From an uncultured Actinomycetes bacterium (GTDB lineage: Bacteria; Actinomycetota; Actinomycetes; Streptosporangiales; Streptosporangiaceae): a stretch of DNA of 64,000 nt. Below, piece by piece: positions 8,777 to 54,901 of this stretch (positions within the stretch are counted from its first letter, which is position 1; every line of letters begins with the position of its first letter). Both the position numbers and the translations under genes were made by a program. The notes beneath the pieces are model-generated. The model made no database searches and was not told where the DNA came from. It saw only the letters and a list, made by a program, of their open reading frames with translations. The stretch spans positions 1,457 through 65,456 of the forward strand of contig CAWJPL010000035.1 of assembly GCA_963844695.1 (NCBI GenBank), in the 5' to 3' direction.

Positions 8777-8946
8777 TGCCACCAACTGAGCGTACGGCAA
8801 CCCCACGTGGGCAACCGGCCCCGTGGACCCGTGCCCCCGGGATCTGGCCCCCGGGGGTCTGCACCAGTGGTTTTGCCGGGCGCGAAGGGCGGGCGTCGAG
8901 ACCACGCTTGGTGGCGACACCAAGACCCGCCGGGATGGAGATTTCA

Positions 8947-9815: not shown

Positions 9816-10802
9816 ATGTCGAACCACTTCAGCGCCGACAACCTCAAGTTCCCCGGCGACGACCGCCGCCTCGACCTGACCGACGTGTTCGCCTTCCAGG
9901 CCCCGGCGCTGCACGCCCGCGGCAAGACCGTGCTGATCATGGACTCGAACCCGACCAGCGCCCCGCCCCCGATCCAGGCCCAGGCCAAAGGCCCGGAGTT
10001 CTACCCCGGCGCGGTCTACCGGATCAACATCGACACCGACGCCGACAACCACGCCGACATCGCGTTCACCTTCACCTTCTCCGAATACCAGAACGGCACC
10101 CAGACCGGCACCGCGTGGTATGCCACCGGCGCCGCCGCCCGCCAGCCCGAACCCGCCGGCCAGACCCTGGCCCGGGACTTCCCCGTCAGCTTCGACGCCA
10201 CCCCCCGGCCGGTCCAGGCCGGCCGGGTCCGGCTGGCCGCCGGGCTGCGCAGCGACCCGTTCTTCGCCGACGTCGAAGGCGCCCTGCACGGCTTCACCTG
10301 GACCGGCCACGACGACTTCGCCGGCAACAACGTCAACTCCATCGCCCTCGAAGTCCCCCACGACATGCTCGGACCCGGGCCCGTCATCGGCGTCTGGGCC
10401 TCCATCAGCCGCCACCACGACGGCGTGCTGGAGCAGATGGACCGCGGCGGGAACCCCACCATCAACCCCTTCATCAACCCCGACGGGGAGAAAAACCTGT
10501 TCAACACCCGCCACCCCGCCGACGACGTCACCAACTACCTGGAGCCATGGTCAGCGATCCTGCAAAACGCCGGCGGCTACACCCCCGACGCCGCCAGAGC
10601 CGCCGCCCTGCAAGTCCTGCCCGACATCCTGCGCTACGACCACACCAAACCCGCCACCTACCCCAACGGCCGCATCCTCACCGACGACGTCTACAGCCAC
10701 CGCTTCGCGTGGCTCACCAACGGCAAGGTCCCGCCGTCCGGCCTCAAGCCGCACGACGACCTGCTCACCGAACTCCCCTACCTCGGCCCCCCCAACCCCT
10801 AA
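9816..10802 (+). CDS. DUF4331-like protein
   Basis: In-frame ATG 9816 follows AGGAG. MSNHFSADNLKFPGDDRRLDLTDVFAF near the N-terminus and YPNGRILTDDV near the C-terminus recall the DUF4331 pattern (family recalled from memory). Confidence 0.7.
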   Translation: MSNHFSADNLKFPGDDRRLDLTDVFAFQAPALHARGKTVLIMDSNPTSAPPPIQAQAKGPEFYPGAVYRINIDTDADNHADIAFTFTFSEYQNGTQTGTAWYATGAAARQPEPAGQTLARDFPVSFDATPRPVQAGRVRLAAGLRSDPFFADVEGALHGFTWTGHDDFAGNNVNSIALEVPHDMLGPGPVIGVWASISRHHDGVLEQMDRGGNPTINPFINPDGEKNLFNTRHPADDVTNYLEPWSAILQNAGGYTPDAARAAALQVLPDILRYDHTKPATYPNGRILTDDVYSHRFAWLTNGKVPPSGLKPHDDLLTELPYLGPPNP

Positions 10803-10938
10803 CCACCAGGCGCTAACCCAGCGCCAGTCCCCTGGCCCCGCGTGCCGCCCCAGCGGCACGCGGAGCCAGGCGGCAAAACGCAGAGAAGGTGAGACACGAA
10901 CACCCGCAGCACGGCCGCCGCCCCAGGAGGCGCTCACC

Positions 10939-11535
10939 GTGGAATACCTCGTTGACATGACCACCCACGTCCCAGACCGAACCCCACCACAAGCCATCGA
11001 CGACATCCGCACCCGCGAACGCAAGCGCTCACAACAGCTCGCGTCCCAAGGCCACCTGCTCCGCCTGTGGCACCCGCCGCTCCAGCCGGGTCAATGGCGG
11101 AGCCTCGCACTGTTCGCCTGCGACGACAGCGACGACCTCAAGAGAATCCTCACCACGATGCCGCCGCACGCCTGGCGCACCGATGAGGTCACCCCGCTCA
11201 GCCGGCACCCGAACGACCCGGCACTAGAGGTCCGCCTGGAAACCACGGAGTTTCTGACCACCTTCACCCTGACCGTCCCGGAGGGCACGCCTGTCCAGGC
11301 GGTAGAGCACACCAACGCCCGCGCGGCGGAACGCGTGCACCAGCTGGCTGGGCAGGGATACCTGGCGCGGCTGTGGACGCTGCCGGGCGAGGGGCGCTCG
11401 CTGGGCCTCTGGCAAACCCAGGACGCGGCCGAGATGCAGGCGATCTTGATATCGCTCCCGCTGGGTTCCTGGGTGATCGTGCAGACCAGGCCGCTCACCC
11501 GGCATCCCGACGACCCCGCGACAGCCAAGACCTGA
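10939..11535 (+). CDS. tandem (duplicated) muconolactone delta-isomerase-like protein
   Basis: GTG 10939 is preceded by AGGAGG. Two halves of about 95 aa share the pattern (Y/F)L..(M/F)T..VP..TP...QLA.QG.L.RLW...PL.RHP.DPA. Only the last 198 codons of the 471-aa track ORF look real. Confidence 0.75.
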   Translation: MEYLVDMTTHVPDRTPPQAIDDIRTRERKRSQQLASQGHLLRLWHPPLQPGQWRSLALFACDDSDDLKRILTTMPPHAWRTDEVTPLSRHPNDPALEVRLETTEFLTTFTLTVPEGTPVQAVEHTNARAAERVHQLAGQGYLARLWTLPGEGRSLGLWQTQDAAEMQAILISLPLGSWVIVQTRPLTRHPDDPATAKT

Positions 11536-31022: not shown

Positions 31023-32300
31023 GTCTCCGCGGACACTGTCGGTGACCTGCTGCGGGCCGAGGGGTTCCGCCTGCTAGGCAACGCCAAGACCATCGAGGGC
31101 AGACGGCACCCGGACCGGGACGCCCAGTTCCGTTACATCAGCGAGCAGGCCACGGCTCACCAGGCGGCCGGCCAGCCGGTGATCAGCGTGGACACCAAGA
31201 AGAAGGAGCTGGTCGGGGCGTTCCGCAACGGCGGCCGGGAATGGCGGCCAGAGGGCGAGCCGGCCAGGGTCAGCACCCACGACTTCCCGGACCTGGAGCT
31301 GGGCAAGGCCATTCCTTACGGGGTCTACGACGTGGCGGCCAGCGCCGGCTGGGTCAACGTCGGCACCGACCACGACACTGCCGCGTTCGCCGTGGAGTCG
31401 GTCCGCCGCTGGTGGGACAGCGCGGGGAAAGCCGCCTACCCGGGCGCGTCGCGGCTGCTGGTCACCGCGGACGCCGGCGGGTCCAACGGGTACCGCACCC
31501 GGGCGTGGAAAGCCGAGCTGGCCGCTTTTGCCCTGGAAGCCGGGCTGTCGGTCACGGTCTGTCACTTCCCGCCCGGCACCTCCAAGTGGAACAAGATCGA
31601 GCACCGGCTGTTCTCCCACATCACCCTCAACTGGCGTGGGCGGCCGCTGACCAGCCACGAGGTCATCGTCAACACCATCGCCGCGACCACTACCCGCACC
31701 GGGTTACGGGTGCACGCCGAGCTTGACCAAGGCAGCTACCCGGACGGGGTCAAGGTCAGCGACGAGCAGATGGCCTGCCTCCCCCTGGACCGCCACGGCT
31801 GGCACGGCGACTGGAACTACACCCTGCGCCCCGAGCCGCCTCCGCCGCCCCCGCCAAGACCGCCCGCCCGCGAACCCGAGCGTCCCGGCTGGGCGAACCC
31901 GGCCCTGACCGGCCTGACCGCCGCCCAGTGGGAGCAGCTGATCACCACGCTGGCCACCCCCTACCAGGCCCAGCGCGAAGCCGCCCTCTACATCGCCCGC
32001 GGCGGCCCGCCCACCCGCAAGCCTGCCGTCAGGCACCCGCCCGCGCTCACCCTCGCCGAGCAGGTCCTGATCACCGTGCTGCGCCAGCGTTTCCGGCTGC
32101 CCCGGCCCGAACTCGCCGAGCTGTTCGGTGTCGTGACCGGCACCATCGCCAAAGCAGAACGCCAGGCCCGGCCGCTACTCCAACAGCACGGCCATCAGAT
32201 CAAGCCAGCCCCGATACCGATCAAGACCCTGGCTGAGCTGACCGCCTACGCCTCGGCTCACGGAGTCGAGCTGACCCCGAAAGCCAAACCAGCGTGTTAA
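31023..32300 (+). pseudogene. ISAzo13-family transposase, 5'-truncated
   Basis: VSADTVGDLLRAEGFRLLGNAKTIEGRRHPDRDAQFRYISEQ...ISVDTKKKELVG...VCHFPPGTSKWNKIEHRLFSHI. The reading frame is open upstream of the track start 31179, but the N-terminal quarter of the family is missing. I found no terminal repeats. Confidence 0.75.
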
Positions 32301-33527: not shown

Positions 33528-33571
33528 TGGTCAGGGGCGGGGTCGAACCGCCGACCTTCCGCTTTTTCAGG
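33528..33571 (+). repeat. direct copy of the tRNA-Phe 3' half (att-type repeat)
   Basis: tggtcaggggcggggtcgaaccgccgaccttccgctttttcagg is the 43-nt core of 54555..54597 with one extra T in the T-run. Confidence 0.85.
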
Positions 33572-37140: not shown

Positions 37141-38645
37141 AAGGCCGGTTAGTTAAGCTTCGTTGCCGGGTGTCAAGGGGCGCCGAGGATGGCGATGGTG
37201 ATGGCGGCTTTGCGGGTTGTGCGGTCGACCTTGCCTTTGGCGTTGTATCTGGACATGGCGCGTTTGACGACGCGGGGGCTGGTGCGCGGCCGCCTGCTGG
37301 GCATCAGGCTGGCCAGGACGAGCCGGCCGATAGTCCCGGCCAGGTCGGTGACGGGGCCAGCGAGGACGCCGGCGGCCAGGATGACCTGGTCGCGGGAGGC
37401 GTTCAGGGCGACGGCGAAGCTGGCGCGGTCGGGGTCGGTGCCAGGAACGGCGCCGGCGGCGTCGGCGATCGCGGTGCGCAGCACCTGGTAGGTGACCAGC
37501 AGGGCGTAGACCTCCTGGTCGATGCCGCCGGGAGTGCGGGCGCGCAGCACCCGGCCGCCGAGGATCGTGGACTTGAGCTCGAAGTAGGCGGTCTCGACCT
37601 CCCAGCGCTCGTGGTAGAGGACAGCCACCTCACCGGCCGGGTAGCGGGCCGGGTCGGTCAGGGTAGTGACCAGCCGGGCAGCCGGCTATGGCGTGCCCGG
37701 TGCTGGTCGTGACGGTGACCTGCGCGTCGATGACCCGGACGGGGATCCCGCCGAAGCGCGACAGCCACGACCCGTCGGGCAGGCGGCTCAGGACCGGAAG
37801 CGCCGGGGCGCCGTAGCCGGCCCGGACCCGGATCAGGAAGTCCGCGCCGGTTCCCGCGATCTGCGCGGCCAGGAACCCGGCCCCGAAGCCGCGGTCAGCG
37901 AGCAGGACCATGCCCGCGTGCAGGCTGGCGAGCAGGGCCGGGGCGCAGGTGGTCTCGCCGGCCGAGACGGGCCCGAACACGGCGTCGACGACGGTACGGG
38001 TCCCGCAGCTGACCAGGGCCAGCAGCCGCAGCATCGGGTAGCCGGAAGCGCCGTTCGCGCCGCCGCGCTGCTTGGAGTAGACGGCCAGGTTCGCCTCGCT
38101 GTCCGGGACGGTCATGACCGTGCCGTCGATCGCGACCGCCAGCAGTCCCCGCCAGCGCGCCCCGCCCGCAGACGGCCCGCGCAGCAGGAAGAACAGCTCA
38201 CGCAGCGGCCCGGAACCCAGCCGGCGCCGCGCCTGGGTCATCGCGGACGCGGTCGGGACCGTCACGGGCAGCCCGCCCAGCCCCGCGGCCACCCGGTGCC
38301 AGACCTGCGTGTAGCCCAGCTCGGCGAACAGGCACCCCGCCAGCAGCAGGTAAACCACGACCCTGGCCGGCAGGACCCGCACCCGGCGCTGCACCCGGCA
38401 CGTCTGCTCCAGCACCGCGCCAGCCATCTCGAACGGCACCTGCTGCGTCAGCTCGCCCAGGTGACCCGGCGCGAACCGCCCTCCAGCCACCGTCACGGCA
38501 CGCGAAATGACAGACTGATCCACGGCGGGGCTCCAGGTGACGAGGCATGTCTTTGGCGGACAAACCTCACTTACCGGAGTCCCGCTGCCACCTCACCAAC
38601 CAACACACCTTGACAACCAGCCACATCACTTAACTAACCGGCCTT
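37141..38645 (-). mobile_element. IS4-family insertion sequence (1505 bp) with perfect 17-bp terminal inverted repeats and a 12-bp target duplication
   Basis: IR aaggccggttagttaag at 37141..37157 matches the reverse complement at 38629..38645. The flanking direct repeat gcacctaacggc is at 37129..37140 and 38646..38657. Confidence 0.85.
37173..38523 (-). pseudogene. IS4-family DDE transposase, frameshifted near 37671..37685
   Basis: The upstream frame ends ...VTVTTSTGHAIAGCPAGHYPDRPGPLPGR*. The next frame reads RLVTTLTDPARYPAGEVAVLYHERWEVETAYFELK. The local sequence cagccgg-g-cagccgg looks like a 7-nt repeat insertion, and removing 7 nt restores ...TGHAIARLVTTLTDP... Confidence 0.8.
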
Positions 38646-41983: not shown

Positions 41984-43267
41984 CCAGGGACCCGGCAAAG
42001 TCGTTCATACTGCGTGTAGCAGCGTGAGCGTGCGCTGCGGGTCGCGGGCGTGGTGGCGGTTGGCGGCGGCGATGTTGTCGTGGCCGTCCAGGCGCAGGAG
42101 GCTGATGGCCAGGCTTCGCAGCGTTGCCATGACGCGGGGTGCGTTCCCGGTCCTGACCAGGGACTTGTCTTCCTGATAGGTCACGTCACGGACCCAGTGG
42201 AGCTTGTTCTCTATCTCCCAGTGGCCGCGAATCCAGGCGCCCAGGGTTGCCGGGGCAGCGCGGGAGTCGCTGGTGATGAGGTACACGACCTCGACGGTCT
42301 TCTTGCCCTTCTTCGTGACGGTCCTTCGCACCTGCGCAACCTGGGCGGCGCCGGCGAACTCGATACAGGCCGGCGCGAGCGCGGCCTTGATGGTGCGGCG
42401 GGCCCGGCGCCCATGGTCCGTGCTCACGGCCGAGACACCGGGAATGGCGGCCCAGGGAAGTTTCTTGAGCTGCCGGTACAGGGTCGGCATATTGCCCTTG
42501 ACGGTCATCACGTAGTCCGCGTCCCGGCTGATGATGGCCTGCGCGGTGTCATGCTGCGTGTGCAGCGCGTCGATTGTGATGATCGCCCCGGCCAGGTCAG
42601 CGAACGCCCTGAGCAGATCCCGCACCGCGGGGATCTCGTTCGACTTCGCGTCCACGGCGACCTGGCCGAGGACCGCGCCGATGCCGTGCGCCAGCGCGGC
42701 GACCAGGTGCGGGGCCTTCCCGGTCTCGTCCTTCGCGCCGCGGACCGTCTTGCCGTCGATCGCGATCACCAGCCGGCCGCTGGCCTGCACGGCCCTGGTG
42801 TGCAGCCACGCCCCGAGGACCCGGTCGAGCATGTCCGGGCTGACCAAGGTGAAGGCGCGCCGGAACGTGGACTCCTCCGCAGGCCCGCGAGCCGCGCCCA
42901 GCCCGGCCAGCACGTCTGCCCCGGCGTCGGCGGCCCACTGCCCGATCGCGGCGAACGACCGCGACCCCGCTATCACCGCGGCGATGCCGACGGCGAGCAG
43001 GCCGGCCATGGAGTGCCGGCGGCCGCGTTTCTTGCGCGGGTCCGGGACCTGGGCGAGGAGATCGAGGAGGTACTGGCTGCGGGCAGCCGGAATGGGCGAA
43101 GATGACATCGGCGGGCGGGCGTCCCTCGTGGCAGACGACGGTGAGCGTGAGAACTTCCATCGTTCCGCCCGGGCCCTGCCCGCCACCCGCAGGCACGCCG
43201 GACGCTTCACCCGTTGTTACGACATCGCAGGTCACAACCTCACTTCACAACTTTGCCGTGTCCCTGG
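41984..43267 (-). mobile_element. ISAs1-family insertion sequence (~1.28 kb)
   Basis: 21-nt imperfect IRs: ccagggacccggcaaagtcgt (41984..42004) versus the reverse complement of acaactttgccgtgtccctgg (43247..43267), 19/21. There is a possible 8-bp duplication gggccga(a/g) on both flanks. Confidence 0.7.
42005..43108 (-). CDS. ISAs1-family transposase
   Basis: DPRKKRGRRHSMAGLL, IAIDGKTVRGA, SNEIPAVRDLL, ITIDALHTQHDTA, HWEIENKLHWVRDVTYQEDKS. The plausible start is ATG 43108. Confidence 0.9.
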   Translation of the reverse strand: MSSSPIPAARSQYLLDLLAQVPDPRKKRGRRHSMAGLLAVGIAAVIAGSRSFAAIGQWAADAGADVLAGLGAARGPAEESTFRRAFTLVSPDMLDRVLGAWLHTRAVQASGRLVIAIDGKTVRGAKDETGKAPHLVAALAHGIGAVLGQVAVDAKSNEIPAVRDLLRAFADLAGAIITIDALHTQHDTAQAIISRDADYVMTVKGNMPTLYRQLKKLPWAAIPGVSAVSTDHGRRARRTIKAALAPACIEFAGAAQVAQVRRTVTKKGKKTVEVVYLITSDSRAAPATLGAWIRGHWEIENKLHWVRDVTYQEDKSLVRTGNAPRVMATLRSLAISLLRLDGHDNIAAANRHHARDPQRTLTLLHAV

Positions 43268-44306: not shown

Positions 44307-44972
44307 CGCGTCCCCCCAGGACTGCCGAAAGCCTGGCGATCAGCCCAAGGGCATGCTAGCCCTGACAGCCAGCTGCCGCTCCTGGCCAGTCCGCCTCCTT
44401 GCCGGTCTCCCGATAGGCCGCACCCCTCCGGAGCGGTCTCCCCGCGACTGGTCGTACCCGTCCACGGCGCAGCTATCTTATCCTGGCCTGACTGATCCGC
44501 TCACGACGATAAATCCCACCCGGAGACTGACCGGGAACTGGTTCAGAACCTTGAGACGGTCCGGGCCAGCTCCAGTCCGGACCGTCGAGTTCCCCGGCAT
44601 CGACCAGCCCGTGCAACGCTAATCCTGCAATGGATCGATGGGAAAGGCGAGCTAAAGGTAGTGGATTGTGTCTCGCTGCACCCCCCGCGGGGGCAGCTAC
44701 CGTGCCGCTGGCCAAACTCGACGTCTGCAAATAACGCTCATGCCGAATCGAGTGCAAGAGGCGCACTCAATTCGGCTACTTGTGAGCGAGTCTTAGCACG
44801 GGTCTGGCCCGTCTTGATGACAGGACCACCAGGCGCGGTGAGCCCGTCGGCTACCGGCATCGCTGTCGGCCCGTGTGGCGGCAGACACGAGCGCACGACT
44901 GGTCCCCGCAGGGCGACGTGCCGCAGCCTCCGGGGCTTCTGAGCAGGAGTCGAGGTGGGGCTGTCCCGGGTT

Positions 44973-45921
44973 TCAGGTGACGGGGTCCATGATGCGGTCG
45001 TAGCAGCGGCGGGCTCGTGTGCTGCGGGCGCTGGCGCCGTAGCATCTGCGGGGAGGTCCACCCGTTTAGTTCCATCAGGTCCCCCTCCGCGCCGCCACGG
45101 TCCAGCCAGGTGTGGCTGAAATGATGACGGAATCTGTGCGGGTGCACAGCCACCCCGCACTGGTTGCCTCGGCGCACAATCATCTGGTAGATGCCATTCG
45201 CCGTCATCGGGGCCCGGTTGTTGACTCCCAGCCACAGTTGCGGCCGGTATGCCTGGGCGTGCCGGGCCCGGACCCGGATGTAGCGGTCAAGGGTGACGGC
45301 GGTCTGGTGGCTGACCTTGACGATCCGCGCTTTACCGCCCTTGCCCCGGACCGTGATCTCCCGCTGCCACAGGTCAACGTCGCTGCGCTGCGCATCCTCC
45401 GGGTCGTAGACGATCCCGGCCAGTTCCGACAGCCGGATCCCCGTCGCCCGGAACACCGCGATGACCGCAAGGTCGCGGCGCTGGGCAAACGACCGACCCG
45501 CGCAGACCTTCTCCAGCTTCGATAGTTCTCCGCTCGTGAAAACAGGGATGAGCTTCTCGGTCACCCTGGGCGGCCGGAGCCTGGCCATCGGGTCCGTGAG
45601 ATCTTCCTCACCGGCCCACCATTTGAAGAACTGCTGCAGAGCGCGGTACTGGTTGCTGGCATAGGAATCGCTGTAGCGGCCCAGCAGCCACACCATCCAC
45701 CGCTGGATGTCCTGCCCGCTGACCTGCTCCTACTTGGCCCGGGATGTCTGCGGGATCAGGTGCGCCGCGGCGAACCACTGCACCGCCTCGGTGTACATCC
45801 GCACCGTCTTGCCCGACTTTCCCTCGGCCATCAGGCAGAGCCGGAACGAGGCGATCTCGGGCTGGAACACTCTCGCGGCCAAGGGCTCAGGCTGCCGCGA
45901 GCACGGTCCCGGCACGCTCAT
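44973..45921 (-). pseudogene. int: tyrosine integrase, inactivated (TGG->TAG at 45730..45732; 8-nt deletion near 45041 removing the catalytic-Tyr codon from the frame)
   Basis: Collinear with the intact copy 53375..54391. The sequence RAK*EQV compares with RTRWEQV. The sequence gccgtagcatctgcgg compares with gccgtagcgtcgcagcatctgcgg, so ...QMLRRYGASARS becomes ...QMLRRQRPQHTS. Confidence 0.85.
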
Positions 45922-46084
45922 AGTTTGTCTCTCTTCCTGCGGCCGAGCTGCGGCGCAACTCTCTGCAGGCCAGCGTTTCCGCTGGTCAGAAACTCTCAGC
46001 AAAGGTGAGATCGTGGCCGTCATGCGTCTTCTCTTTCCTGCCATTCGCGCAGGTGAGAGGGCTGGCCGATGCTACGAGAAGAGG

Positions 46085-46127
46085 TGGTCAGGGGCGGGGT
46101 CGAACCGCCGACCTTCCGCTTTTCAGG
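46085..46127 (+). repeat. direct copy of the tRNA-Phe 3' half (att-type repeat), 43/43 identical to 54555..54597
   Basis: tggtcaggggcggggtcgaaccgccgaccttccgcttttcagg. Confidence 0.9.
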
Positions 46128-46342
46128 GGTTCTATCTCCCTTTACGACCATGATCTCGTAAATATCATGCAGCCCAGCTCACCGGCATAAGGGCTGGTCA
46201 ATAGGCTGACACCACAATCATAGCCACTGTGCCGCCGTGTGCCGCGTAGTCCCGTTTCGTCTGTGGGCTTCCCGTGGTGAGCCCTCCGAAAGAAAGGACT
46301 TGTGGGGCTTCTGTGGGACCCGGCGAGGCGCGGACGGGCTCG
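46128..46342 (+). repeat. island distal-arm repeat, copy 2 (homologous to 15256..15470)
   Basis: See copy 1. The 114-nt core is 46229..46342. Confidence 0.75.
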
Positions 46343-46809
46343 TCGGCGAGCATCGCGTGCATCTAGTCGTCAGTGCTGGTCCTGGCTAGCCGACGTCCCG
46401 TCATCCCGCCGGAGTGTGTGACTGGGCATGACCGAATGGGAGTGGTTCAGGCTGGCATGCCGTACTCACTGATGTTGTGCCTGGTAAGGACGGCAGAGGA
46501 TAGAAGACTCGAACTCCTTCTCTAGCGTTCGCTCGGGCCGGCATGTGACCTGCGGTCCTTGTCAGCTGTGGGTCTGGCTGAACGGCCGCGCGCGAGAGAG
46601 AATGACTGTCGATGGTGGGCGGGCATCAATCAGGCACGATTTCTTCGGGAGCGGAAGTAGGGCGGCGGATCGCGTGGCTGCCTGAGACCGCCGCCGAGGC
46701 GGCGCAAGAGCACGTCGAGGACAGGGACGGGCGATGCGCGGCGGCGAGATCGTTCAGTTGAATGTATTGCGACGTGGTTCTGGCAGGTAGCTTTCCGAGG
46801 GGAAATGCG

Positions 46810-49800
46810 GTGTGGTTCAGGCTGCTCGGGGCGGTAGAGGTTTCCGCGGACGGAACCTCGCTTCCGCTGGGTGGCCCCAGGCAGCGGTCGGTGCTGGCCG
46901 ATCTTGCCCTGCATGTAGGCCGGGCTGTCCCTACGGCGCAGTTGATCGTCGATGTGTGGGGGGAACGGCCGCCAAGCTCGGCGGTCCACACCCTGGAGAG
47001 CTATGTCTCCCGGCTGCGCCATGTGCTGAACGCCTCCGGTGCGGCTGGCGCCGTGGTGGTCAGCAAGTCGGCCGGGTACATGCTCGACGCAGTACCAGGA
47101 AACGTCAACGTGTGGCGGTTCCGGGAACTGGCCGCGAGAGGGGGCGCGGCGGTCGAGGCGGGTGATGCGGCCACGGCGGCGGCACTGGTCGGCGCCGCGA
47201 TCGACTTGTGGCGCGGCCCGGCGCTCGCAGATATCAGGGAGGCGGCGTTTGCCCCGCCCGCGGTGCAGCGGCTGGAAGAGGAGCGGCTGACCGCGCTGGA
47301 GAACCTAATGGAGGCGCGGCTGGCGTTGGGGCGGCACCGCGAGCTCGTGGCCGAGCTTGAGGCGCTGATCGCCGGTTCCCCATACCGCGAGCATTTCCAC
47401 GCGCAGCTGATGCTGGCGTTGTACCGTTCGGGCCGGCAGGCTGATGCGCTGGCCGCCTTCGGCCGCGTCCGCGATACGCTGTCCGGCGAGCTTGGCATCG
47501 AGCCTGGCCGGAAGCTGTGCGAGCTTCAGCATGCGGTGCTGCTGCAGGCGCCCGAACTGGAACCGCGCGTCGCCGCTGCCCGCCTGGGCCCGCGCCAGAT
47601 GGCTGACCGGCAGCCAAGCGCACCGGCTGCGCCGCCGGCGGCGGGGCCTGTCCGTGCGCGTGGGGGCCGCGCCTGGCGGTGGGCTGCGGCAGCTGCGGCG
47701 CTTGGCCTAGCTGCCGCAGCGGTCGTGCCGATCCTGGTGGGCATGGGGGCCGCCCATGGCAAGACGCTTGCGGGCGGCGTGGGTGAGGTGTCCGCGGCCG
47801 GCGGTATCGCCCGCAGCGTGGCCCTGCCAGGCCCACCGGGTGCCGCCGTGGCGGCGGATGGCTCGGTATGGGTGACCAGCCCCGAGGGCAACGTGGTTTA
47901 CCGGATCGACCCGGTCACCGGGTCGCTGGTGCAGACCATACCGGTGGGCTCTGGCCCCAGCGCGATCACCGCCAGCGGTGCCGATATCTGGGTGGCCAAC
48001 ACCCTGGACGGTACGGTCTCCCGGATCAGCGCGGCCGCTAACGCGGTCGTTCAGACCGTCAATGTCGGCACCGAGCCCACCGGCATCACCGCGGACGGCG
48101 GTTCCATCTGGGTAGCAGATGCCTCGGCCAGTACCTTGTCAGCGCTCAGCTCCGTCTCCGGGCGGCTGACATCTACTATCCCTTTGCCGTCGCCGCCGTT
48201 CGGGGTCGCCTTTGGTGCTGGCTCGGTGTGGGTGACCAGCCCGGCGGACAACAACGTCACCCGGGTCGATCCGCGCACCGGCCAGCCGGGCCAGCAGATC
48301 ACGGTCGGTGCCGGGCCTACGGCTGTCGCGTTTGGCCTTGGTTCTGTGTGGGTCGCCAACAGCCTGGATAGCACAGTCTCCCGTATCGATCCCGGCACTG
48401 ACTCCGTCGCTGCCGTGATCCCGGTCGGGGATGGCCCGGACGCGCTGGCGATCACCAGGGACTCGGTCTGGGCAGCGGACCGGCTGTCGGGCGCGCTGAC
48501 CAGGATCAGCTCCGGCGGCGCCAGCCCGGTGAGCGCGATCCTCCTGGGCGGCAGCCCAGTGGCGCTAACAACCGCCGGTGACCGGGTCTGGTTCGCGGTC
48601 GGCGCTGCGAGCTCCGCCCGGCGGGCTGGCGGCACGCTGAATGCAGTCGTCAGCTACCCGCCCACGTCGATCGACCCTGCCCTGCAGTACCCCCAGATGC
48701 CGCCTCAGTTCTCCGACGCCACCTATGACACGCTTGTGACGTTCCAGAAGACCGGTGGCAGCGCCGGCCTGCAGCTGGTACCTGACCTGGCCCTTGCCAT
48801 GCCTGCCGTGACCGGCGGTGGGACCGTGTACAGGTTCACGCTGCGGCCCGGCCTGCGGTATTCGACGGGGCAGCTAGTGCGCCCGGAGGATTTCCGTTAC
48901 GCGATCGAGCGCGTCCTGGACCTCGACCCGGAAGCGGGCGCCTTCCTCGACGGGATCTCAGGGGCGTCAGCCTGCGTCCCGGGGAAGCTGTGCGACCTGG
49001 CCCGCGGGGTAACGGTCAACGGATCCGCCAGAACTGTGACGTTCCGTCTGAGCGCACCAGACCCTGACTTCCTGTACAAGCTGGCCTTCGGGTTCACCGC
49101 ACCGGTACCGTCCTACATCCCGGCCCGCGATGCCGGCCGTGATCCTGTGCCAGGCACCGGCCCCTACATGATCACCCGGTATGTTCCCGGCCGCCGGGTC
49201 GTGTTCGCGCGCAACCCGCACTTCCGGGAATGGTCGGCGGCCGCCCAGCCCGCGGGCTTCCCCGATCGCATCGTCTGGACCTTCGGCACCTCGCTCACCC
49301 GTGAGGCCGCCGAGATCGAGGCCGGGCAGGCAGACTGGACTAACGACCCGCTGCCCGGCCTCGCCGGGCTCAGAGCTCGGTTCCCAGCCCAGGTGCACAT
49401 CAGCACGCTGCCCGAAATCGTCTTCGCCGCGTTCAACACTCGGGTGGCGCCGTTCAACGACCCCCGGGTCAGGCGGGCGTTCAGCCTCGCCGCTGACCGT
49501 AACCGCTTCGTCGCAGCACTGGGCGGCCCCGGCCAGGCCGAACCGACCTGCCAGATCCTGCCGCCGGGCATTCCGGGCTACCGGCCCTACTGCCCGTTCA
49601 CCGCCGACCCCAGCGCCTCTGGCGCCTGGGTCGGCCCCGACCTGGCCGCCGCCCGCAGGCTTGTGGCCGCGTCCGGGACCAGGGGCATGCGCGTCACCGT
49701 GTGGTCCGACGACCAGGCCCCGGACGGCACTACCGCTGCCTTCATTGTCTCCGTCCTGCACATGCTCGGCTACCGGGCGGCTGCGCACGTCGTTCCGAAC

Positions 49801-50202
49801 GAAGCACTGGGCCGGGCGGTGAACGACTCGCGCCGCCGGATCCAGGCAACCGACGGCGACTGGGGCGCGGACTACCCCTCGGCGTCGGATTTCTTTGACG
49901 AGTTCTTCCGCTGCTCGGCCTTTCGCCTCGACGACCCCGCCGCCACCCGGAACGGCTCGTTCTTCTGCGACCCCGCGGCTGACCGGCTGATGAACGTCGC
50001 AGACAGCGAGCAGCTGACCAGCCCACTTCAGGCCGCAGGGACATGGGCAGCTGTCGATCGGGCGGTCACACGGGCGGCTCCGTGGGTAACCCTGGCCGTC
50101 CTGAAGAACACCGATTTCCTGTCCGCCCGGATAGGCAATTACCAGTACAACCCGTTCTGGGGCGTGCTCCTGGATCAGCTGCAGATCCGCCCTCGGCGAT
50201 GA
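46810..50202 (+). CDS. membrane-anchored SARP-type regulator: OmpR/PhoB-like wHTH + BTAD, one TM helix, beta-propeller (NHL/YVTN-like) repeats, family-5 solute-binding (SBP_bac_5) domain
   Basis: VWFRLLGAVEVSADGTSLPLGGPRQRSVLADLAL... (SARP wHTH). LWRGPALADI...HFHAQLMLALYRSGRQADALAAFGRVRDTL..ELGIEPG (BTAD). RARGGRAWRWAAAAAALGLAAAAVVPILVGMGAA (TM, about 47676..47750). About 6-7 repeats of the form VWV(T/A)....V.RIDP.....TIPVG.GP.AI. A C-terminal region of about 530 aa looks like a peptide/nickel SBP. The start is GTG 46810 or ATG 46762. Confidence 0.85.
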   Translation: MWFRLLGAVEVSADGTSLPLGGPRQRSVLADLALHVGRAVPTAQLIVDVWGERPPSSAVHTLESYVSRLRHVLNASGAAGAVVVSKSAGYMLDAVPGNVNVWRFRELAARGGAAVEAGDAATAAALVGAAIDLWRGPALADIREAAFAPPAVQRLEEERLTALENLMEARLALGRHRELVAELEALIAGSPYREHFHAQLMLALYRSGRQADALAAFGRVRDTLSGELGIEPGRKLCELQHAVLLQAPELEPRVAAARLGPRQMADRQPSAPAAPPAAGPVRARGGRAWRWAAAAAALGLAAAAVVPILVGMGAAHGKTLAGGVGEVSAAGGIARSVALPGPPGAAVAADGSVWVTSPEGNVVYRIDPVTGSLVQTIPVGSGPSAITASGADIWVANTLDGTVSRISAAANAVVQTVNVGTEPTGITADGGSIWVADASASTLSALSSVSGRLTSTIPLPSPPFGVAFGAGSVWVTSPADNNVTRVDPRTGQPGQQITVGAGPTAVAFGLGSVWVANSLDSTVSRIDPGTDSVAAVIPVGDGPDALAITRDSVWAADRLSGALTRISSGGASPVSAILLGGSPVALTTAGDRVWFAVGAASSARRAGGTLNAVVSYPPTSIDPALQYPQMPPQFSDATYDTLVTFQKTGGSAGLQLVPDLALAMPAVTGGGTVYRFTLRPGLRYSTGQLVRPEDFRYAIERVLDLDPEAGAFLDGISGASACVPGKLCDLARGVTVNGSARTVTFRLSAPDPDFLYKLAFGFTAPVPSYIPARDAGRDPVPGTGPYMITRYVPGRRVVFARNPHFREWSAAAQPAGFPDRIVWTFGTSLTREAAEIEAGQADWTNDPLPGLAGLRARFPAQVHISTLPEIVFAAFNTRVAPFNDPRVRRAFSLAADRNRFVAALGGPGQAEPTCQILPPGIPGYRPYCPFTADPSASGAWVGPDLAAARRLVAASGTRGMRVTVWSDDQAPDGTTAAFIVSVLHMLGYRAAAHVVPNEALGRAVNDSRRRIQATDGDWGADYPSASDFFDEFFRCSAFRLDDPAATRNGSFFCDPAADRLMNVADSEQLTSPLQAAGTWAAVDRAVTRAAPWVTLAVLKNTDFLSARIGNYQYNPFWGVLLDQLQIRPRR

Positions 50203-50427
50203 TGCCCCGGCAGGCAGGCCCTCCCCTTCCCGCCAGCACGATCTAGGTTGCGCCAAAGCGCGATCTGCTGGCTGCAGCCTGCCACCTGCGATCCGATCAT
50301 CTTGCGATCAGGCTCCGAGCCAGTTCTGGTTGCCTTGTCGCCACCAGTGGCTGCTGGGGGGCTGCACCATCAGGCTTGCGACCTCCGGCCGTTCGGGAGC
50401 CGCAGCTTGAGTCTTCAGGGGAGAAAC

Positions 50428-52893
50428 ATGAAGCAATCACGTTGGACATCTCGCAGGCTGCCAGGTCCCCGGATGGTTGCGGCGCTGGCGGTGGCTGGCT
50501 GCGCGGCAGTCTCCCTTGTCGTGGCGGGCGGTGCGGTGGCGTCTGGCTCGGCTGCGCCGTTGCCTGGTTCTGTTGCGCCTCGCGCGCCGCAGGCGGCGCG
50601 GTTCGGGGCTTTGCGGTTCGGGCCCGCCCGCCCGGCCGGCACAGGGCAGTCGGTGCTGGATCGGCTGGCCGGCGCGGCTCAGGCCGGGCCGGGTCGGCAG
50701 GGCGGGTTTGTGGTGCTGGGCGGCAGCCCGGGCGCCCCGGCCGCCAACCCCAGGACCGATACCGTTTACATGCCGATCCAGTGCCGTACGAGCTTCTGCC
50801 CCTCCTCAGGCAAGCCTGGGCACGTCGTGGACATCATCAACGCTTCGAAGTGCAACGCCACGATCAGGTCCGGGTGCCGGGTGGTCGCGACGATCAGGGT
50901 CGGCAGCTCCCCGCTGGCGGCTGCCGTCGATGAGCGTACCGACACCGTTTATGTCACCAACGGCAACGACGGCACAGTCTCGGTGCTGAACGGCGCCCGG
51001 TGCAACGCGCGGGTGACCCGCGGCTGCCGGCCGGTGGCGACGGTCAAGGTGGGGAAGGGACCGGTCGCCGCGGTCGTCAACCCGGCCACGCGCACGCTCT
51101 ATGTGGCGAACGTCGCCGCGGGTAGCGTCTCGGTGATCAACGCGGCCAGATGCAACGCCAAGATCACGCGAGGGTGCCGGCGCCCGGCCCGGACAGTGAC
51201 CGACAAGGCCAGCCCGTCCTGGCTCGATGTTGACAGCGCGACCGACACCGTCTACGTGGCGAACAGCGTCACCCCGGGCACCGTGTCGGTGATCGACGGG
51301 GCCGCGTGCAACGGGCACACCGGCCGCGGCTGCGGGCGGGTCCCGGCAACCGTCACGGTGGGTGCCAGCCCCTTCGCGCTCGCCGTCGACCGCGCCAGCG
51401 ACACCGTCTATGTCGCTAACTTCGTCAACGAGTTCAACGGCGGGTCGGTGTCGGTCATCAACGGCGCCCAGTGCAACGCCAAGATCACCTCCGGCTGCGG
51501 CCGCACGCCACCGGCCGTGCCCACCGGCATCGGGACCGGCTTCGTCGCGGTCAACGGCGCCCTGCACACCGTGTTCGCGGCCAATGCGGCCGACGACACG
51601 CTGTCGGCGATCAACACCCGGACCTGCGACGGGACGGTGACATCCAGCTGCGCGACCCGGCCGCCGAACCTGCGGGCCACCTCCCTCCAGGGCCCCGGAT
51701 ACAACTCGTTCCCGGGCGGCTTCGCGCTCCTCCCGAAGGCGGGCACCGCCTACGTGGTGAACATCGGGGGCCGGAACATCGTGTCGGTGACCAGCATCAA
51801 CCACTGCAACGCCACCAGCACCGCCGGCTGCCGCGCCGAGGCGCCTACCGTGCCGGAGGGCGAGTTCCTGTTGTCAGCCGACCCGGCCACCAATACCATC
51901 TACGGCGGCAACCTCAGCCAGCCGGTGATCGACGTGATCAACAGCGCGACCTGCCATGCCCGGCGTCTGGCCGGCTGCGCCCCGGCCGCGGAGATCCCGG
52001 TTCCTGACCGGGGCGCCAACGTCGGGGCAATCGATCACGCCACCCACACCCTGTACGCCGCCGCCCCGTCGTCCGACAACGTGTTCGCGATCAACACCGC
52101 CACCTGCAACGCCGAGCGCACCTCCGGCTGCGCCGCCGCCCCGCCAACCATCAAGATCGGCGCATCCCTCAAAGTGCCGGCCGTCAACCCCGCCACCCAG
52201 ACCATGTACGTGTCCTACGGCGCCAACGCCAACAAGGTCGCGGTCGTCAACGCCGCCACCTGCAACGCCATCAACACCTCCGGCTGCTCGCAGACCCCGG
52301 GCGTGGTCAGAGTCGGCGCCGGCACCGTCATCCTGGGCGTCAGCGCCGCCACCGACACCGTCTACGCCCCCAGCGGGGCGGAGAACGCGGTCGCAGTGAT
52401 CAACGGTGCCACCTGCAACGGGACCGACCATTCTGGCTGCGGGCACCTCGCCGCCACTGCCAAGGTAGGCATCGACCCGTTCGGGGCCGCGGTCAACGAC
52501 CACACCCACACCGTGTACGTGACCAACAACGCCGACGGCGACTCACCCGGCACCGTGTCGGTCATCAACGCCGCCACCTGCAACGCCACCAACACCACCG
52601 GCTGCCACCGGCGGTTCCCCACCGCCGCCACCGGCAACTCACCGCTGCTCATCACCGCGGACACCCGCACCGGCGTCCTCTACATCACCAACTTCTCCAG
52701 CGCCTCGGTGACCATCCTGAATGGAAAACGCTGCAACGCGACGGTCACCAGCGGCTGTACCAAGGCCACGCGCGAGCAGTCGGTCGGCTCGGGACCATCC
52801 GGGCTTGCCGTCAACCCGCGCACCCGCACCATCTACGTCGGCAACGGCTACCTGCCCGGATCCCTGTCAATCTTCAGAGCTACCCGCCGTTGA
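50428..52893 (+). CDS. secreted YVTN-family beta-propeller repeat protein (~13-14 blades, each with a conserved C-x7-C pair)
   Basis: ATG 50428 follows AGGGGAG. Signal/lipobox-like N-terminus MKQSRWTSRRLPGPRMVAALAVAGCAAV. There are 13 units of the form T(D)TVYV(A/T)N...(G)(T/S)VSVIN.A.CNA....GC...(A)TV.VG..P.(L/A)AV. The track ORF starts upstream at 50248. Confidence 0.85.
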   Translation: MKQSRWTSRRLPGPRMVAALAVAGCAAVSLVVAGGAVASGSAAPLPGSVAPRAPQAARFGALRFGPARPAGTGQSVLDRLAGAAQAGPGRQGGFVVLGGSPGAPAANPRTDTVYMPIQCRTSFCPSSGKPGHVVDIINASKCNATIRSGCRVVATIRVGSSPLAAAVDERTDTVYVTNGNDGTVSVLNGARCNARVTRGCRPVATVKVGKGPVAAVVNPATRTLYVANVAAGSVSVINAARCNAKITRGCRRPARTVTDKASPSWLDVDSATDTVYVANSVTPGTVSVIDGAACNGHTGRGCGRVPATVTVGASPFALAVDRASDTVYVANFVNEFNGGSVSVINGAQCNAKITSGCGRTPPAVPTGIGTGFVAVNGALHTVFAANAADDTLSAINTRTCDGTVTSSCATRPPNLRATSLQGPGYNSFPGGFALLPKAGTAYVVNIGGRNIVSVTSINHCNATSTAGCRAEAPTVPEGEFLLSADPATNTIYGGNLSQPVIDVINSATCHARRLAGCAPAAEIPVPDRGANVGAIDHATHTLYAAAPSSDNVFAINTATCNAERTSGCAAAPPTIKIGASLKVPAVNPATQTMYVSYGANANKVAVVNAATCNAINTSGCSQTPGVVRVGAGTVILGVSAATDTVYAPSGAENAVAVINGATCNGTDHSGCGHLAATAKVGIDPFGAAVNDHTHTVYVTNNADGDSPGTVSVINAATCNATNTTGCHRRFPTAATGNSPLLITADTRTGVLYITNFSSASVTILNGKRCNATVTSGCTKATREQSVGSGPSGLAVNPRTRTIYVGNGYLPGSLSIFRATRR

Positions 52894-53374
52894 CACGGCG
52901 GCGGACAGGGCCGCAGCGACCAGCCCTGCTCAGCGATGCCAGGCCCGGCTCAAGGCACGGGTGGGGAGCGTCTGGCCGTCTGGGGATTGATGATCGTGGC
53001 GGTCATGGGTTGGGATTCGCCCACCGAAGCAGACGGGCGGAACCCTGGAGGTGACCGGCCTCTTCGCCGGATCTGACGATGCCCCGAACTTGCCGTTCCT
53101 CGACGCCGACCTGGGCGACTTGAGATTCACGGCTGCTCATAGTGACAATCTGGCGTACCCGGGATGCATGACAACGCTAGGTCGCTGCCCTCCACAAACT
53201 ACGGCAAGCTCCAGACTACGAGTGAATACGCTAGGCAGCGCATAAGCATGCGTTTACGCAATGCACCCAATTCGGCAGATCCGGTTGGATCGGCAAGACC
53301 GCAGTGCTGGCACCTGGTTGCTAGCAGCACGGATCTCCGCTGTCGGTACATGCAGTGTTAGAAGATCATGCACG

Positions 53375-54391
53375 TCACCATGGACGAGCTGATGCTGTTA
53401 CCCATAGGGATGTCAGCGCGTGACGAGAACGGCGATAGGGGCTGATCTCCATGATGCGGTCGTAGGTGCGGCGGGCCCGGGCGCTGCGGGCGCTGGCGCC
53501 GTAGCGTCGCAGCATCTGCGGGGAACTCCAGCCGTTGAGCTCCATCAGGTCCCCCTCTGCGCCGCCCCGGTCCAGCCAGATGTGGCTGAAATGGTGCCGG
53601 AACCGGTGCGGCCAGGCATCCACCCCGCACTGGCGGCCGCGGCGGGCGATCATCTGGTAGATGCCGTTGGCGGTCATCGGGCCCCGGTTATTCATCCCAA
53701 GCCACAGCTGAGGCCGCCACGCCTGCGCATGCTTTGACCGGATCCGGACGTACCTGTCCAGAGCCAGAGCCGCCTCGTGCCCGATCCTGACGATCCGCGG
53801 CCTGCCGCCCTTGCCGCGGACGGTGATCTCGCGCTGCTGCAAGTCGAGGTCGCTGCGGCTGGCGTCGTCCGGGTCGTAGCGGATCCCGGCCAGTTCGCCG
53901 GCCCGGATCCCGCTCGCCTTGAGCACCGCGATCACCGCTGCGTCGCGGCGCTGGGCGAAGGTACGGCCCTGGCAGGTTCTCTCCAGGGCCGATAGTTCTC
54001 CGCTGGTGAACACCGGCACCAGCTTCTCGGCCACCTTCGGCGCGCGCAGCCGGGCCATCGGGTCGGGGATCTGCTCCTCCTCGGCGAGCCATCTGAAGAA
54101 CTGCTGCAGCGCCCGGTACTGGTTGCTGGCATACGCGTCGCTGTACCGGGTCAGCAGATGGACCAGCCACCTCTGCACATCGTGGGCGTCTACCTGCTCC
54201 CACCTGGTCCGCGAGGTGCGGGGGATCAGGTGCGCAGCGGCGAACCATGCCACCGCGTCGGTGTAGGTCCGCACCGTCTTGGCCGCCTTGCCCTCGGCGG
54301 CCAGGTGCAGCCGGAACGAGCCGATCTCAGGCTGGAAAACCCCGGCGTCAAGCGGCTTGCGCCGCCGGGGACACGGTTGCGGGACGGTCAT
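53375..54391 (-). CDS. int: tyrosine recombinase/integrase (intact)
   Basis: SAM-like N-domain (FRLHLAAEGKAAKTVRTYTDAVAWF) and a catalytic domain with RDAAVIAVLKASGIRAGEL (R), HRFRHHFSH (H-x-x-R...H) and MLRRYGAS (Tyr). The plausible start is ATG 54391 (MTVPQPCP...). The ORF is open to 54490. Confidence 0.9.
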   Translation of the reverse strand: MTVPQPCPRRRKPLDAGVFQPEIGSFRLHLAAEGKAAKTVRTYTDAVAWFAAAHLIPRTSRTRWEQVDAHDVQRWLVHLLTRYSDAYASNQYRALQQFFRWLAEEEQIPDPMARLRAPKVAEKLVPVFTSGELSALERTCQGRTFAQRRDAAVIAVLKASGIRAGELAGIRYDPDDASRSDLDLQQREITVRGKGGRPRIVRIGHEAALALDRYVRIRSKHAQAWRPQLWLGMNNRGPMTANGIYQMIARRGRQCGVDAWPHRFRHHFSHIWLDRGGAEGDLMELNGWSSPQMLRRYGASARSARARRTYDRIMEISPYRRSRHALTSLWVTASARPW

Positions 54392-54554
54392 TGTTTTTCT
54401 CTCTTCCTGCGGTTCCGCTGAAGCGCACGCATCCGCGCTTAAGCGTTTCCGCAGGTCAGAGAAGTTAAGAGAAAGCGCATCACGCGCCATGAGAATCCCT
54501 CTCTTCCTGCGATTAGCGCAGGTGAGAGGGCTGGCAGATGCTACGAGAACGAGG

Positions 54555-54628
54555 TGGTCAGGGGCGGGGTCGAACCGCCGACCTTCCGCTTTTCAGGCGG
54601 ACGCTCGTACCGACTGAGCTACCTGACC
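54555..54628 (-). tRNA. tRNA-Phe (anticodon GAA)
   Basis: Manual cloverleaf: GGTCAGG-TA-GCTC-AGTCGGTAC-GAGC-G-TCCGC-CTGAAAA-GCGGA-AGGTC-GGCGG-TTCGACC-CCGCC-CCTGACC-A. Confidence 0.9.
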
Positions 54629-54674
54629 GTGACCGACCGCCGTGACGCAACCATCACGAGCGGTCTGAGCCTAG

Positions 54675-54748
54675 CGGTCCTGACGGGACTTGAACCCGCG
54701 ACCTCCACCTTGACAGGGTGGCGAGCTAACCGGCTGCTCTACAGGACC
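54675..54748 (-). tRNA. tRNA-Asp (anticodon GTC)
   Basis: Manual cloverleaf: GGTCCTG-TA-GAGC-AGCCGGTTA-GCTC-G-CCACC-CTGTCAA-GGTGG-AGGTC-GCGGG-TTCAAGT-CCCGT-CAGGACC-G. Confidence 0.9.
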
Positions 54749-54774
54749 ATCGGTGCCGGCCATATGGCCGACGG

Positions 54775-54847
54775 TGCCCCCAACGGGATTCGAACCCGTG
54801 CCGCCGCCTTGAAAGGGCGGTGTCCTAGGCCACTAGACGATGGGGGC
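54775..54847 (-). tRNA. tRNA-Glu (anticodon TTC)
   Basis: Manual cloverleaf: GCCCCCA-TC-GTCT-AGTGGCCTA-GGAC-A-CCGCC-CTTTCAA-GGCGG-CGGC-ACGGG-TTCGAAT-CCCGT-TGGGGGC-A. Confidence 0.9.
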
Positions 54848-54901
54848 CGGTGACGGCCGCCGCCGCCGTGACCCTTGGCGCCCGCCGTCGGGGACTGCCC
54901 C

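Follow-up and report, generated by a model that had tools for sequence, protein, structure and literature searches.

SARPs (Streptomyces antibiotic regulatory proteins) have been studied almost solely as soluble switches situated in antibiotic clusters, and the signals that they perceive are largely open. Could a member of this family take up its signal outside the cell? The question is raised by one gene in a 64,000-nt stretch of contig CAWJPL010000035.1 from an uncultured actinomycete of the Streptosporangiaceae (the whole stretch is called the window here, and the coordinates of its features are collected in Table 1). An earlier inspection of the bare letters and their open reading frames (ORFs), here termed the sequence-only reading, had described the product as a SARP DNA-binding module joined through a single transmembrane (TM) helix to a beta-propeller and a solute-binding protein (SBP) domain. 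Our analysis confirms this description, places the protein in a large family, and points to a DNA box beside the gene as the probable site at which it acts.

A single uninterrupted open frame spans 46762 to 50202 on the plus strand. Translation of the regulator is likely to begin at the GTG at 46810, which is preceded by GAGGGGA, because homologues at 54-97% identity start at the equivalent residue. Within the product, Pfam recognized the OmpR-type winged helix Trans_reg_C (36.3 bits, cut-off 26.2) and, directly adjacent, BTAD (157.5 bits, cut-off 22.1, covering profile positions 3-146 of 146), in agreement with the SARP module of the sequence-only reading. NCBIfam returned the SARP region of AfsR as a match and no specific family covering the whole regulator. 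The best matches of the module in the PDB were EmbR (E 8.5e-46) and AfsR (E 2.1e-42), with an alignment spanning aa 3-251; the AfsR DNA-contact residues W74, P79, R92 and R94 correspond to W50, P55, R68 and R70 of the regulator, all four invariant in our homologue alignment (A1), and AfsR T88 corresponds to S64. In an AlphaFold2 model built on 58 homologues, the module had a per-residue confidence (pLDDT) above 90. By both of its defining domains, as these profiles recognize them, the regulator is a member of the SARP family, and it lies outside the described SARP classes: the C-terminal part consists of TM helix, propeller and SBP domain, with no NB-ARC, TPR or LAL domain.

The propeller families Vgb_lyase, YNCE, SGL and NHL all matched aa ~340-600, and the model contained seven blades, the upper of the six to seven that had been proposed. 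By sequence, the closest structure was an archaeal YVTN S-layer propeller (1l0q, E 5.6e-25), and further matches in the PDB included Vgb lyases and the PknD sensor (1rwi, E 5e-6) with its designed derivatives. The last domain was matched by Pfam SBP_bac_5 (aa 656-1036, E 1.6e-52, profile positions 2-364 of 368), and Foldseek aligned it over the whole target length to OppA, DppA, MppA, NikA, 8upi and 2wop (E 1e-27 to 1e-20, 520-560 aligned columns, TM-score on the target 0.6-0.73); its best sequence matches in the PDB were 2wok (E 4.4e-35) and 8upi (E 2.9e-34). The C-terminal domain has the complete bilobal fold of SBP_bac_5, as had been claimed; unlike the usual family-5 SBPs (SBP5), which are free secreted or lipid-anchored proteins whose genes stand with those of an ATP-binding cassette (ABC) permease and ATPase, it is fused to a regulator. 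The checks that had been proposed for the domain boundaries and the ectodomain were run with Pfam and AlphaFold2, and the architecture stood.

Within the SBP domain, the segment W-G-A-D1021-Y-P aligned with WGADFP of OppA2 and WIADFP of 8upi, and D1021 is at least 90% conserved in alignment A1. We take the Asp of this W-x-x-D segment to have a ligand-site role in OppA and DppA. The nearest solved SBPs bind arginine or peptides, and a peptide-like ligand may tentatively be suggested for the cleft of the regulator, as one possibility among others.

The only strongly hydrophobic 19-mer of the regulator lies at aa 292-310 (Kyte-Doolittle 2.34, versus 1.44 for the next best) and immediately follows the stretch RARGGRAWRW; in the AlphaFold2 model, a lone helix at 290-309 comes after a linker that is disordered over aa 253-289. 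All 58 aligned homologues had their most hydrophobic 19-mer in the same linker position (aa 283-335), with a mean Kyte-Doolittle value of 2.36 versus 1.53 for the second-best window, and with a mean net charge of +5.1 in the 18 residues before the helix and -1.2 after it. Mean homologue identity was 26% in the linker, 41% in the helix and ~60-67% in the folded domains; judged from this alignment, what is conserved in the helix region is a physical property and not the sequence. The regulator contains seven Cys residues, and the six invariant ones form the pairs 722/728, 914/928 and 1035/1053, all in the SBP domain, as expected of disulfides in an extracytoplasmic domain. Structural relatives of the SBP5 and YVTN parts are extracytoplasmic or secreted proteins as well. 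A single-pass topology with the N-terminus inside and the C-terminus outside (N-in/C-out) is thus a strong prediction, and we regard architecture and topology, taken together, as very probably correct. The single helix with its positively charged inner flank, on which the sequence-only reading had built, is borne out by these data, and the ToxR/CadC-like arrangement that it had proposed is the best-supported reading, given the conserved hydrophobicity and charge, the restriction of Cys pairs to the C-terminal part, and the re-use of the ectodomain described below. The protein is accordingly predicted to be a transmembrane transcription regulator, with DNA-binding domain and TM segment in one polypeptide; charge, Cys distribution and homology would place the N-terminal DNA-binding domain in the cytoplasm and the C-terminal sensor outside.

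Some metagenome loci matched only residues ~310-1127 of the regulator despite the presence of upstream DNA. Two of these (L110, 2336-5449; L124, 2278-5397) encode, according to Pfam, a class III Guanylate_cyc domain followed by an Arg-rich stretch, a hydrophobic helix, the propeller and SBP5, and another (L131, 1-3258) carries a Ser/Thr kinase domain (Pkinase) N-terminal to the TM segment, propeller and SBP5. L112, L116 and L120-122 resemble L110 and L124 by eye, with an N-terminal domain that had no Pfam match. A search with the L110 protein returned at least 115 clusters of cyclase-type relatives, some of them from Gaiellaceae and Thermoleophilia. Triple fusions also occur, either of SARP, cyclase and ectodomain (P0144, P0203, P0150) or of kinase, cyclase and ectodomain (P0145, P0223). 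A single ectodomain attached via one helix to cytoplasmic outputs of three kinds is characteristic of a transmembrane sensor domain, and in this comparison of predicted proteins the TM-propeller-SBP5 unit behaves as a portable outside sensor module. Its occurrence behind DNA binding, cyclic-nucleotide synthesis and protein phosphorylation alike marks it as a sensor module of general use in actinobacteria.

A homologue search of 5.8 billion proteins (E<=1e-10) gave 5697 matches. Nearly all of the best 120 clusters listed have the full domain set, at 53-97% identity, and the shorter ones among them (69-89% coverage) look truncated. The SARP, propeller and SBP parts stay in one frame in 80 soil-metagenome loci, down to 36-40% identity. 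Because many homologues, in independent clusters and loci, keep all domains in the same single frame, a frameshift or assembly error as the origin of the fusion is excluded. The contig of the window, itself assembled from a metagenome, measures 496,563 bp. The fusion, which the sequence-only reading had set apart from ordinary soluble SARPs, proved not to be rare: the same architecture is encoded as a single polypeptide in more than 100 clusters from soil Actinomycetota, whose family has no name of its own. Homologues appear in databases as "YVTN family beta-propeller protein", "ABC transporter substrate-binding protein" or "BTAD domain-containing putative transcriptional regulator", and a few are assigned to Streptosporangiaceae and Acidimicrobiales. 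A pattern search of genome contigs with the single protein was too specific, giving two full-length relatives (L001, L002) and 44 single-domain loci, the latter of which were later used as negative controls for the DNA box. Going by these counts, the predicted receptor-type SARP is a large undescribed family in soil actinobacteria.

The gene next to the regulator, here called the partner, encodes an 821-aa protein with the lipobox LAVAGC, a disordered tether of ~90 residues, and 13 invariant C-x8-C hairpins at intervals of 43-52 residues. The hairpins have the form C-N-A-x5-G-C and number about one per blade, with an additional C-x4-C pair early in the fold; such regular disulfide stapling is absent from E. 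coli YncE, the namesake of the family in the sources. The AlphaFold2 model of the partner (pLDDT 83; global score, pTM, 0.83) matched tandem seven-bladed propellers in Foldseek, which is consistent with the secreted propeller neighbour of the sequence-only reading; these matches were generic double propellers alone and offered no functional lead. The partner family comprises 2051 matches, and its relatives adjoin the regulator in ~30 loci, in some of them downstream in the same orientation and in others upstream and transcribed divergently. The clade with 59-63% identity in the SBP part has a different divergent neighbour, a lipoprotein of ~290 aa without a Pfam or NCBIfam match, which we predict from its position behind a box to be a second type of target, and in L047 the divergent neighbour is a beta-helix protein. 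The conservation of a YVTN partner, which had been raised as a question, is therefore partial: it holds for many closer relatives and fails in the clades with one of these other neighbours. Among the ORFs examined in the window there was no ABC permease or ATPase gene, nor was there one beside the regulator in L047-L051 (in L047, branched-chain-type ABC genes are found on the far side of an integrase), and the large ORFs examined in the window included no polyketide synthase or nonribosomal peptide synthetase gene. For the ORFs examined, these observations agree with the surroundings first described, which had neither a transporter nor a biosynthetic cluster.

The window and L050, at only ~55% protein identity, have a conserved spacer between regulator and partner. 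A box was defined as CTGCGATTCGAGCATCTTGCGACCAGGCTTCGAGCC by a mismatch-tolerant search and then expressed as a 36-nt position weight matrix (PWM); counts of shared 9-mers in regulator-upstream regions had yielded mostly clade-specific words and did not reveal it. CGAGC-like pentamers occurred at offset 8 in 18/18 seed sites, at offset 19 in 14/18 and at offset 30 in 9/18, and the information content of the box peaked at T6/A10, T17/A21 and T28/A32. Peaks and offsets together indicate three repeats with an 11-nt period. Leave-one-out scores ranged from 20 to 49 bits. The PWM found one match in the 64-kb window, at 46.1 bits, with the next best position at 6.3. When 1.5 Mb of fetched loci were scanned at a threshold of 15 bits, 42 of the 43 matches adjoined a regulator gene: 32 boxes lay 47-89 nt upstream of the regulator start on the opposite strand, and 10 lay 10-154 nt past its stop on the same strand. 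Loci that lack the ectodomain, 0.72 Mb in all, gave one weak match (15.5 bits). Across three kinds of neighbour and both gene arrangements, the box was always oriented toward the neighbouring secreted-protein gene.

The distance of the box from a likely promoter element was also constrained. Of 31 unique sites, 16 carry a TANNNT motif whose first base falls at box index 44 or 45, compared with just four occurrences at any other place in the 110 nt scanned; at the same indices, the other sites read GACGCT or TACCTS. If TANNNT is taken as the -10 element, repeats 2 and 3 fall at about -40 to -30 and -29 to -19, where the afsS promoter has its two AfsR repeats, and repeat 1 would be an extra upstream unit; the predicted transcription start of the partner gene is then near 50342. 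At the afsS promoter, two AfsR SARP protomers lie side by side on the two repeats and contact sigma region 4, the beta flap, the beta' zinc-binding domain and the alpha C-terminal domain, the SARP being monomeric until it meets DNA (PMC10936776). The classical SARP site consists of three heptamers with 4-nt spacers, giving an 11-bp period that overlaps the -35 region (PMC10972967). We consider it likely, from these patterns in the DNA, that the box is the operator of the regulator and that the neighbouring gene is its target. The DNA target, for which reporter fusions or ChIP had been suggested, can in this way be predicted. A scan for sigma-70 promoters and terminators between the two genes found nothing, a result that is uninformative for a high-GC organism. 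Rfam, run at a permissive E-value over 46000-54900, gave only three tRNAs, and the idea that the intergenic region holds a known RNA element was therefore rejected.

The reading that we favour, and to which we give somewhat better than even chances, is that the protein is a single-pass, N-in/C-out, ToxR-like one-component SARP that activates its neighbour gene. In the mechanism proposed, a small extracellular ligand, most likely peptide-like or amine-bearing, would bind in the SBP5 cleft, possibly with participation of the propeller, and binding would alter the conformation or self-association of the ectodomains. The tethered SARP modules would then take up adjacent positions on the three repeats (about -51 to -19) and recruit RNA polymerase as in AfsR, leading to production of the secreted, disulfide-stapled double-propeller lipoprotein. 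Since a SARP is monomeric before it meets DNA, the gathering of tethered modules would favour side-by-side occupation of the repeats. We infer that regulator, operator and target form a self-contained cassette, carried in this case on a tRNA-Phe island. For the broader proposition, that there are SARP membrane receptors which share their sensor with cyclases and kinases, respond to a peptide-like signal and travel as a mobile cassette unrelated to antibiotic clusters, we see the chances as evenly balanced.

Several observations weigh against the reading of a tethered activator with its own operator. A tethered activator must reach chromosomal DNA, which is known for ToxR and CadC and for no SARP. 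The helix of the window protein is Ala-rich and, with a Hessa-scale sum of +0.89 kcal/mol, marginal. The AlphaFold2 model of the regulator has an overall pTM of 0.44, and in its SBP part pLDDT drops below 50 at 627-664, 839-849 and 1104-1130. Of 58 SARP-type loci, 22 are without a box above 15 bits; these are mostly relatives at <=49% identity, together with L047, L060, L061 and L064. Whereas 32 other loci have a box upstream of the regulator, the window has none there, and its -10-like hexamer is degenerate (TTGCCT). Finally, the conserved TGCGAT at 50287-50292 (box index 1-6, with equivalents in other loci) lies at the 5' end of the box, 16 nt before repeat 2; it does not share the phase of the 11-nt repeats, and a simple model of three protomers leaves it unaccounted for.

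Four other explanations were weighed. The signal may trigger a cut by a protease in the linker or helix that frees a soluble small SARP, the membrane form being inactive, along the lines of anti-sigma or RIP-type systems and of a proposal made for CadC. A linker of 40 residues, disordered, poorly conserved and rich in Pro and Ala, separates BTAD from the helix, once freed, aa 1-250 would correspond to a small SARP of the canonical kind (PMC10972967), and proteolytic activation of CadC is reported (PMC11484849). However, no protease gene is present in the island or conserved beside the regulator, ToxR-type regulators act while tethered, and the cyclase and kinase versions of the ectodomain cannot act by release; we consider proteolytic release unlikely. 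We would give a little less weight again to the partner being a co-sensor that binds the regulator ectodomain and modulates or delivers the signal, in the manner of ToxS-ToxR or VtrC-VtrA. Such co-component systems exist (PMC9214523), the partner is extracytoplasmic and tethered by its lipobox, both proteins have YVTN-type propellers, and, as described above, their genes are adjacent in ~30 loci. Against this, the partner gene has a box-type promoter of its own, shows no translational coupling and may be divergent or downstream, and in other clades the partner is absent or has given way to the ~290-aa lipoprotein or the beta-helix protein. A co-sensing partner would be compatible with the activator model through a feedback loop.

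The marginal, Ala-rich helix could also mean that the whole regulator is cytoplasmic, with propeller and SBP serving as an internal ligand-binding domain, much as the periplasmic-binding-protein fold does in LacI-type regulators. This seems to us highly improbable: hydrophobicity and the Arg cluster are kept in 58/58 homologues despite sequence drift, the three invariant Cys pairs are confined to the C-terminal part, the same helix segment also links cyclase and kinase domains to the propeller-SBP5 module, and the close structural relatives of the propeller and the SBP are all secreted. Hardly more credible is that some other factor binds at the box, or that it represents a conserved leader or RNA element belonging to the partner gene. 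The loci that lack it and the out-of-phase TGCGAT would be easier to accommodate in that case; on the other hand, Rfam is empty at the box, which lies upstream of the predicted -10 and so outside the transcript, the box tracks the regulator gene and precedes three unrelated kinds of neighbour, and 11-nt phasing, three repeats and a fixed distance to TANNNT fit SARP promoters. The activation of a neighbour gene by a tethered SARP thus remains the reading that we prefer.

The nearest relatives of the DNA-binding part are AfsR and EmbR, with which the regulator shares the OmpR-type winged helix, BTAD and conserved DNA-contact residues, and its predicted operator resembles the afs box in consisting of 11-nt-phased direct repeats that overlap the -35 region. 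It differs from both in its TM helix and extracytoplasmic propeller and SBP5, in the absence of a biosynthetic cluster nearby (a location that is usual for SARPs and not strictly defining) and in a predicted regulon of a single secreted-protein gene. The described SARP classes are soluble, namely small, medium (NB-ARC), large (NB-ARC and TPR) and SARP-LAL, with EmbR adding an FHA domain, and a 2024 review of the family makes no mention of membranes (PMC10972967). If our reading is correct, the surface-receptor SARP would be a fifth architectural class, and RNA polymerase recruitment of the SARP type could operate from the membrane. In its layout the protein resembles ToxR, CadC and TcpP, which have an N-terminal OmpR-type winged helix, an unstructured linker, a single helix and a C-terminal outside sensor; it is distinguished from ToxR and CadC by BTAD, by tandem direct-repeat sites of the SARP type and by an unrelated sensor domain. 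In a census of 50,302 transmembrane transcription regulators, single-pass proteins were the commonest (56%), BTAD occurred in 213 (0.42%) without comment, and SBP_bac_5 did not occur, SBP_bac_3 and SBP_bac_8 being recorded twice each (PMC10269533). A receptor-type SARP outside a biosynthetic cluster would surprise a specialist, although single-pass winged-helix regulators are already a known class.

The sensor part has parallels of its own. Like the regulator, PknD of Mycobacterium tuberculosis is a single-pass receptor with an outside beta-propeller, with detectable sequence similarity between the two propellers as given above, and kinase-linked versions of the regulator ectodomain exist (L131, P0145, P0223). 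The PknD propeller has been solved and is six-bladed. PknD has no SBP domain, whereas the regulator has seven blades, then SBP5, and a DNA-binding output. DppA in its pairing with Tap, CBP with ChiS, and OppA2 of the clavulanic acid cluster share the fold of the regulator SBP5 and the same ligand-site segment, but they are separate secreted proteins that dock on a receptor or transporter, and the SBP5 of the regulator is covalently fused. Family-5 SBPs feed signalling pathways as well as transporters, and a review of SBPs in signalling treats free docking SBPs only, with transcriptional regulators unmentioned (PMC8050422). The literature searched, outside which most subscription-journal papers lie, contained no membrane-anchored SARP and no SBP5 in a transcription regulator. 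Precedents exist for the parts and for the general logic; of their combination, of the shared sensor module and of the predicted operator-target cassette, that literature contains no description. As its predicted operator and target are no more than 250 bp away from the regulator gene, the system is small enough for direct testing, and it could serve as a one-protein biosensor in actinomycetes.

Table 1. Features of the regulator gene and its surroundings; positions refer to the window unless a locus is named.
Feature	Position	Strand	Basis
Regulator gene	46810..50202	+	1130 aa: SARP, linker, TM helix, 7-blade propeller, SBP5
SARP module (OmpR-type winged helix aa 23-92, BTAD aa 101-244), predicted cytoplasmic	46876..47541	+	Pfam
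Disordered Pro/Ala-rich linker ending in Arg cluster (aa 251-289)	47560..47676	+	pLDDT 31-45
Single TM helix, aa ~290-316, predicted N-in/C-out	47677..47757	+	hydrophobicity, homologues, model
7-bladed YVTN/NHL beta-propeller, aa 323-598, predicted extracytoplasmic	47776..48603	+	28 strands, pLDDT ~88-90
Family-5 (cluster C, OppA/DppA-type) SBP domain, aa 609-1130, predicted extracytoplasmic	48634..50199	+	Pfam, Foldseek, PDB
Predicted SARP operator CTGCGATCCGATCATCTTGCGATCAGGCTCCGAGCC, three CGAKC-type repeats 11 nt apart	50286..50321	+	36-nt PWM
Position of -10-like hexamer, TTGCCT	50330..50335	+	box-index spacing in other loci
Partner gene, predicted target: secreted lipoprotein, tandem 7+7-bladed YVTN propeller	50428..52893	+	lipobox, Cys pattern, model
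attL, copy of tRNA-Phe 3' half, left border of 8.47-kb island	46081..46127	.	perfect 47-nt direct repeat
Island tyrosine integrase, intact	53375..54490	-	Pfam Phage_integrase and SAM-like N domains
tRNA-Phe (GAA); 3' half = attR 54551-54597	54553..54628	-	ARAGORN, Rfam, repeat
~290-aa lipoprotein neighbours in other loci	L073:2838-3713, L074:5029-5949, L077:704-1564, L078:428-1270, L080:734-1705	all -	box-preceded

The perfect 47-nt repeats bracket regulator, partner and integrase, and together with the intact tyrosine integrase they bear out the small integrase-bearing tRNA-Phe island of the sequence-only reading. Whether such a context is conserved had been left as a question, and the answer was negative: a related integrase fragment turned up in L059 alone, and other loci are close to tRNA-Val, tRNA-Thr, tRNA-Ile or no tRNA, so that a conserved integrase/tRNA-Phe context was rejected. 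Other loci also lie near integrases, toxin-antitoxin pairs or transposases, so that the cassette tends to occupy variable regions. No excisionase-like ORF was supported between 52893 and 53375. The 680 nt between attL and the regulator start (46128-46809) contain no supported gene.

A 29-nt core of the 3' half of tRNA-Phe is present in three exact copies, at 33534-33562, 46091-46119 and 54561-54589, and a degraded second integrase, split into two ORFs (44851-45696 and 45730-46044, both on the minus strand), shares 73% protein identity and 78-90% DNA identity with the intact one. The third core copy and the degraded integrase show a second, older island in tandem, at ~33.5-46.1 kb beside that at 46.1-54.6 kb. 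GC content is 0.64-0.70 across ~10000-56000 and 0.71-0.75 in both flanks, and three transposases fall in the lower-GC stretch: an ISAzo13-type DDE transposase (31179-32300, plus strand), an IS4 transposase split by a frameshift (37173-38523, minus strand) and a DDE_Tnp_1 protein with its associated N-domain (42005-43210, minus strand). This suggests that ~10000-56000 is a large acquired block of which the regulator island is the last part. In the high-GC flank, 5942-8947 (minus strand) encodes a 1000-aa LAL-type regulator with an AAA_16 ATPase and a C-terminal LuxR/GerE helix-turn-helix, unrelated to the island. Two tandem muconolactone delta-isomerase domains (Pfam MIase) are encoded at 10120-11535 (plus strand), flanked by several alpha/beta-hydrolase and epoxide-hydrolase genes, and these surroundings may represent an aromatic-catabolism neighbourhood.

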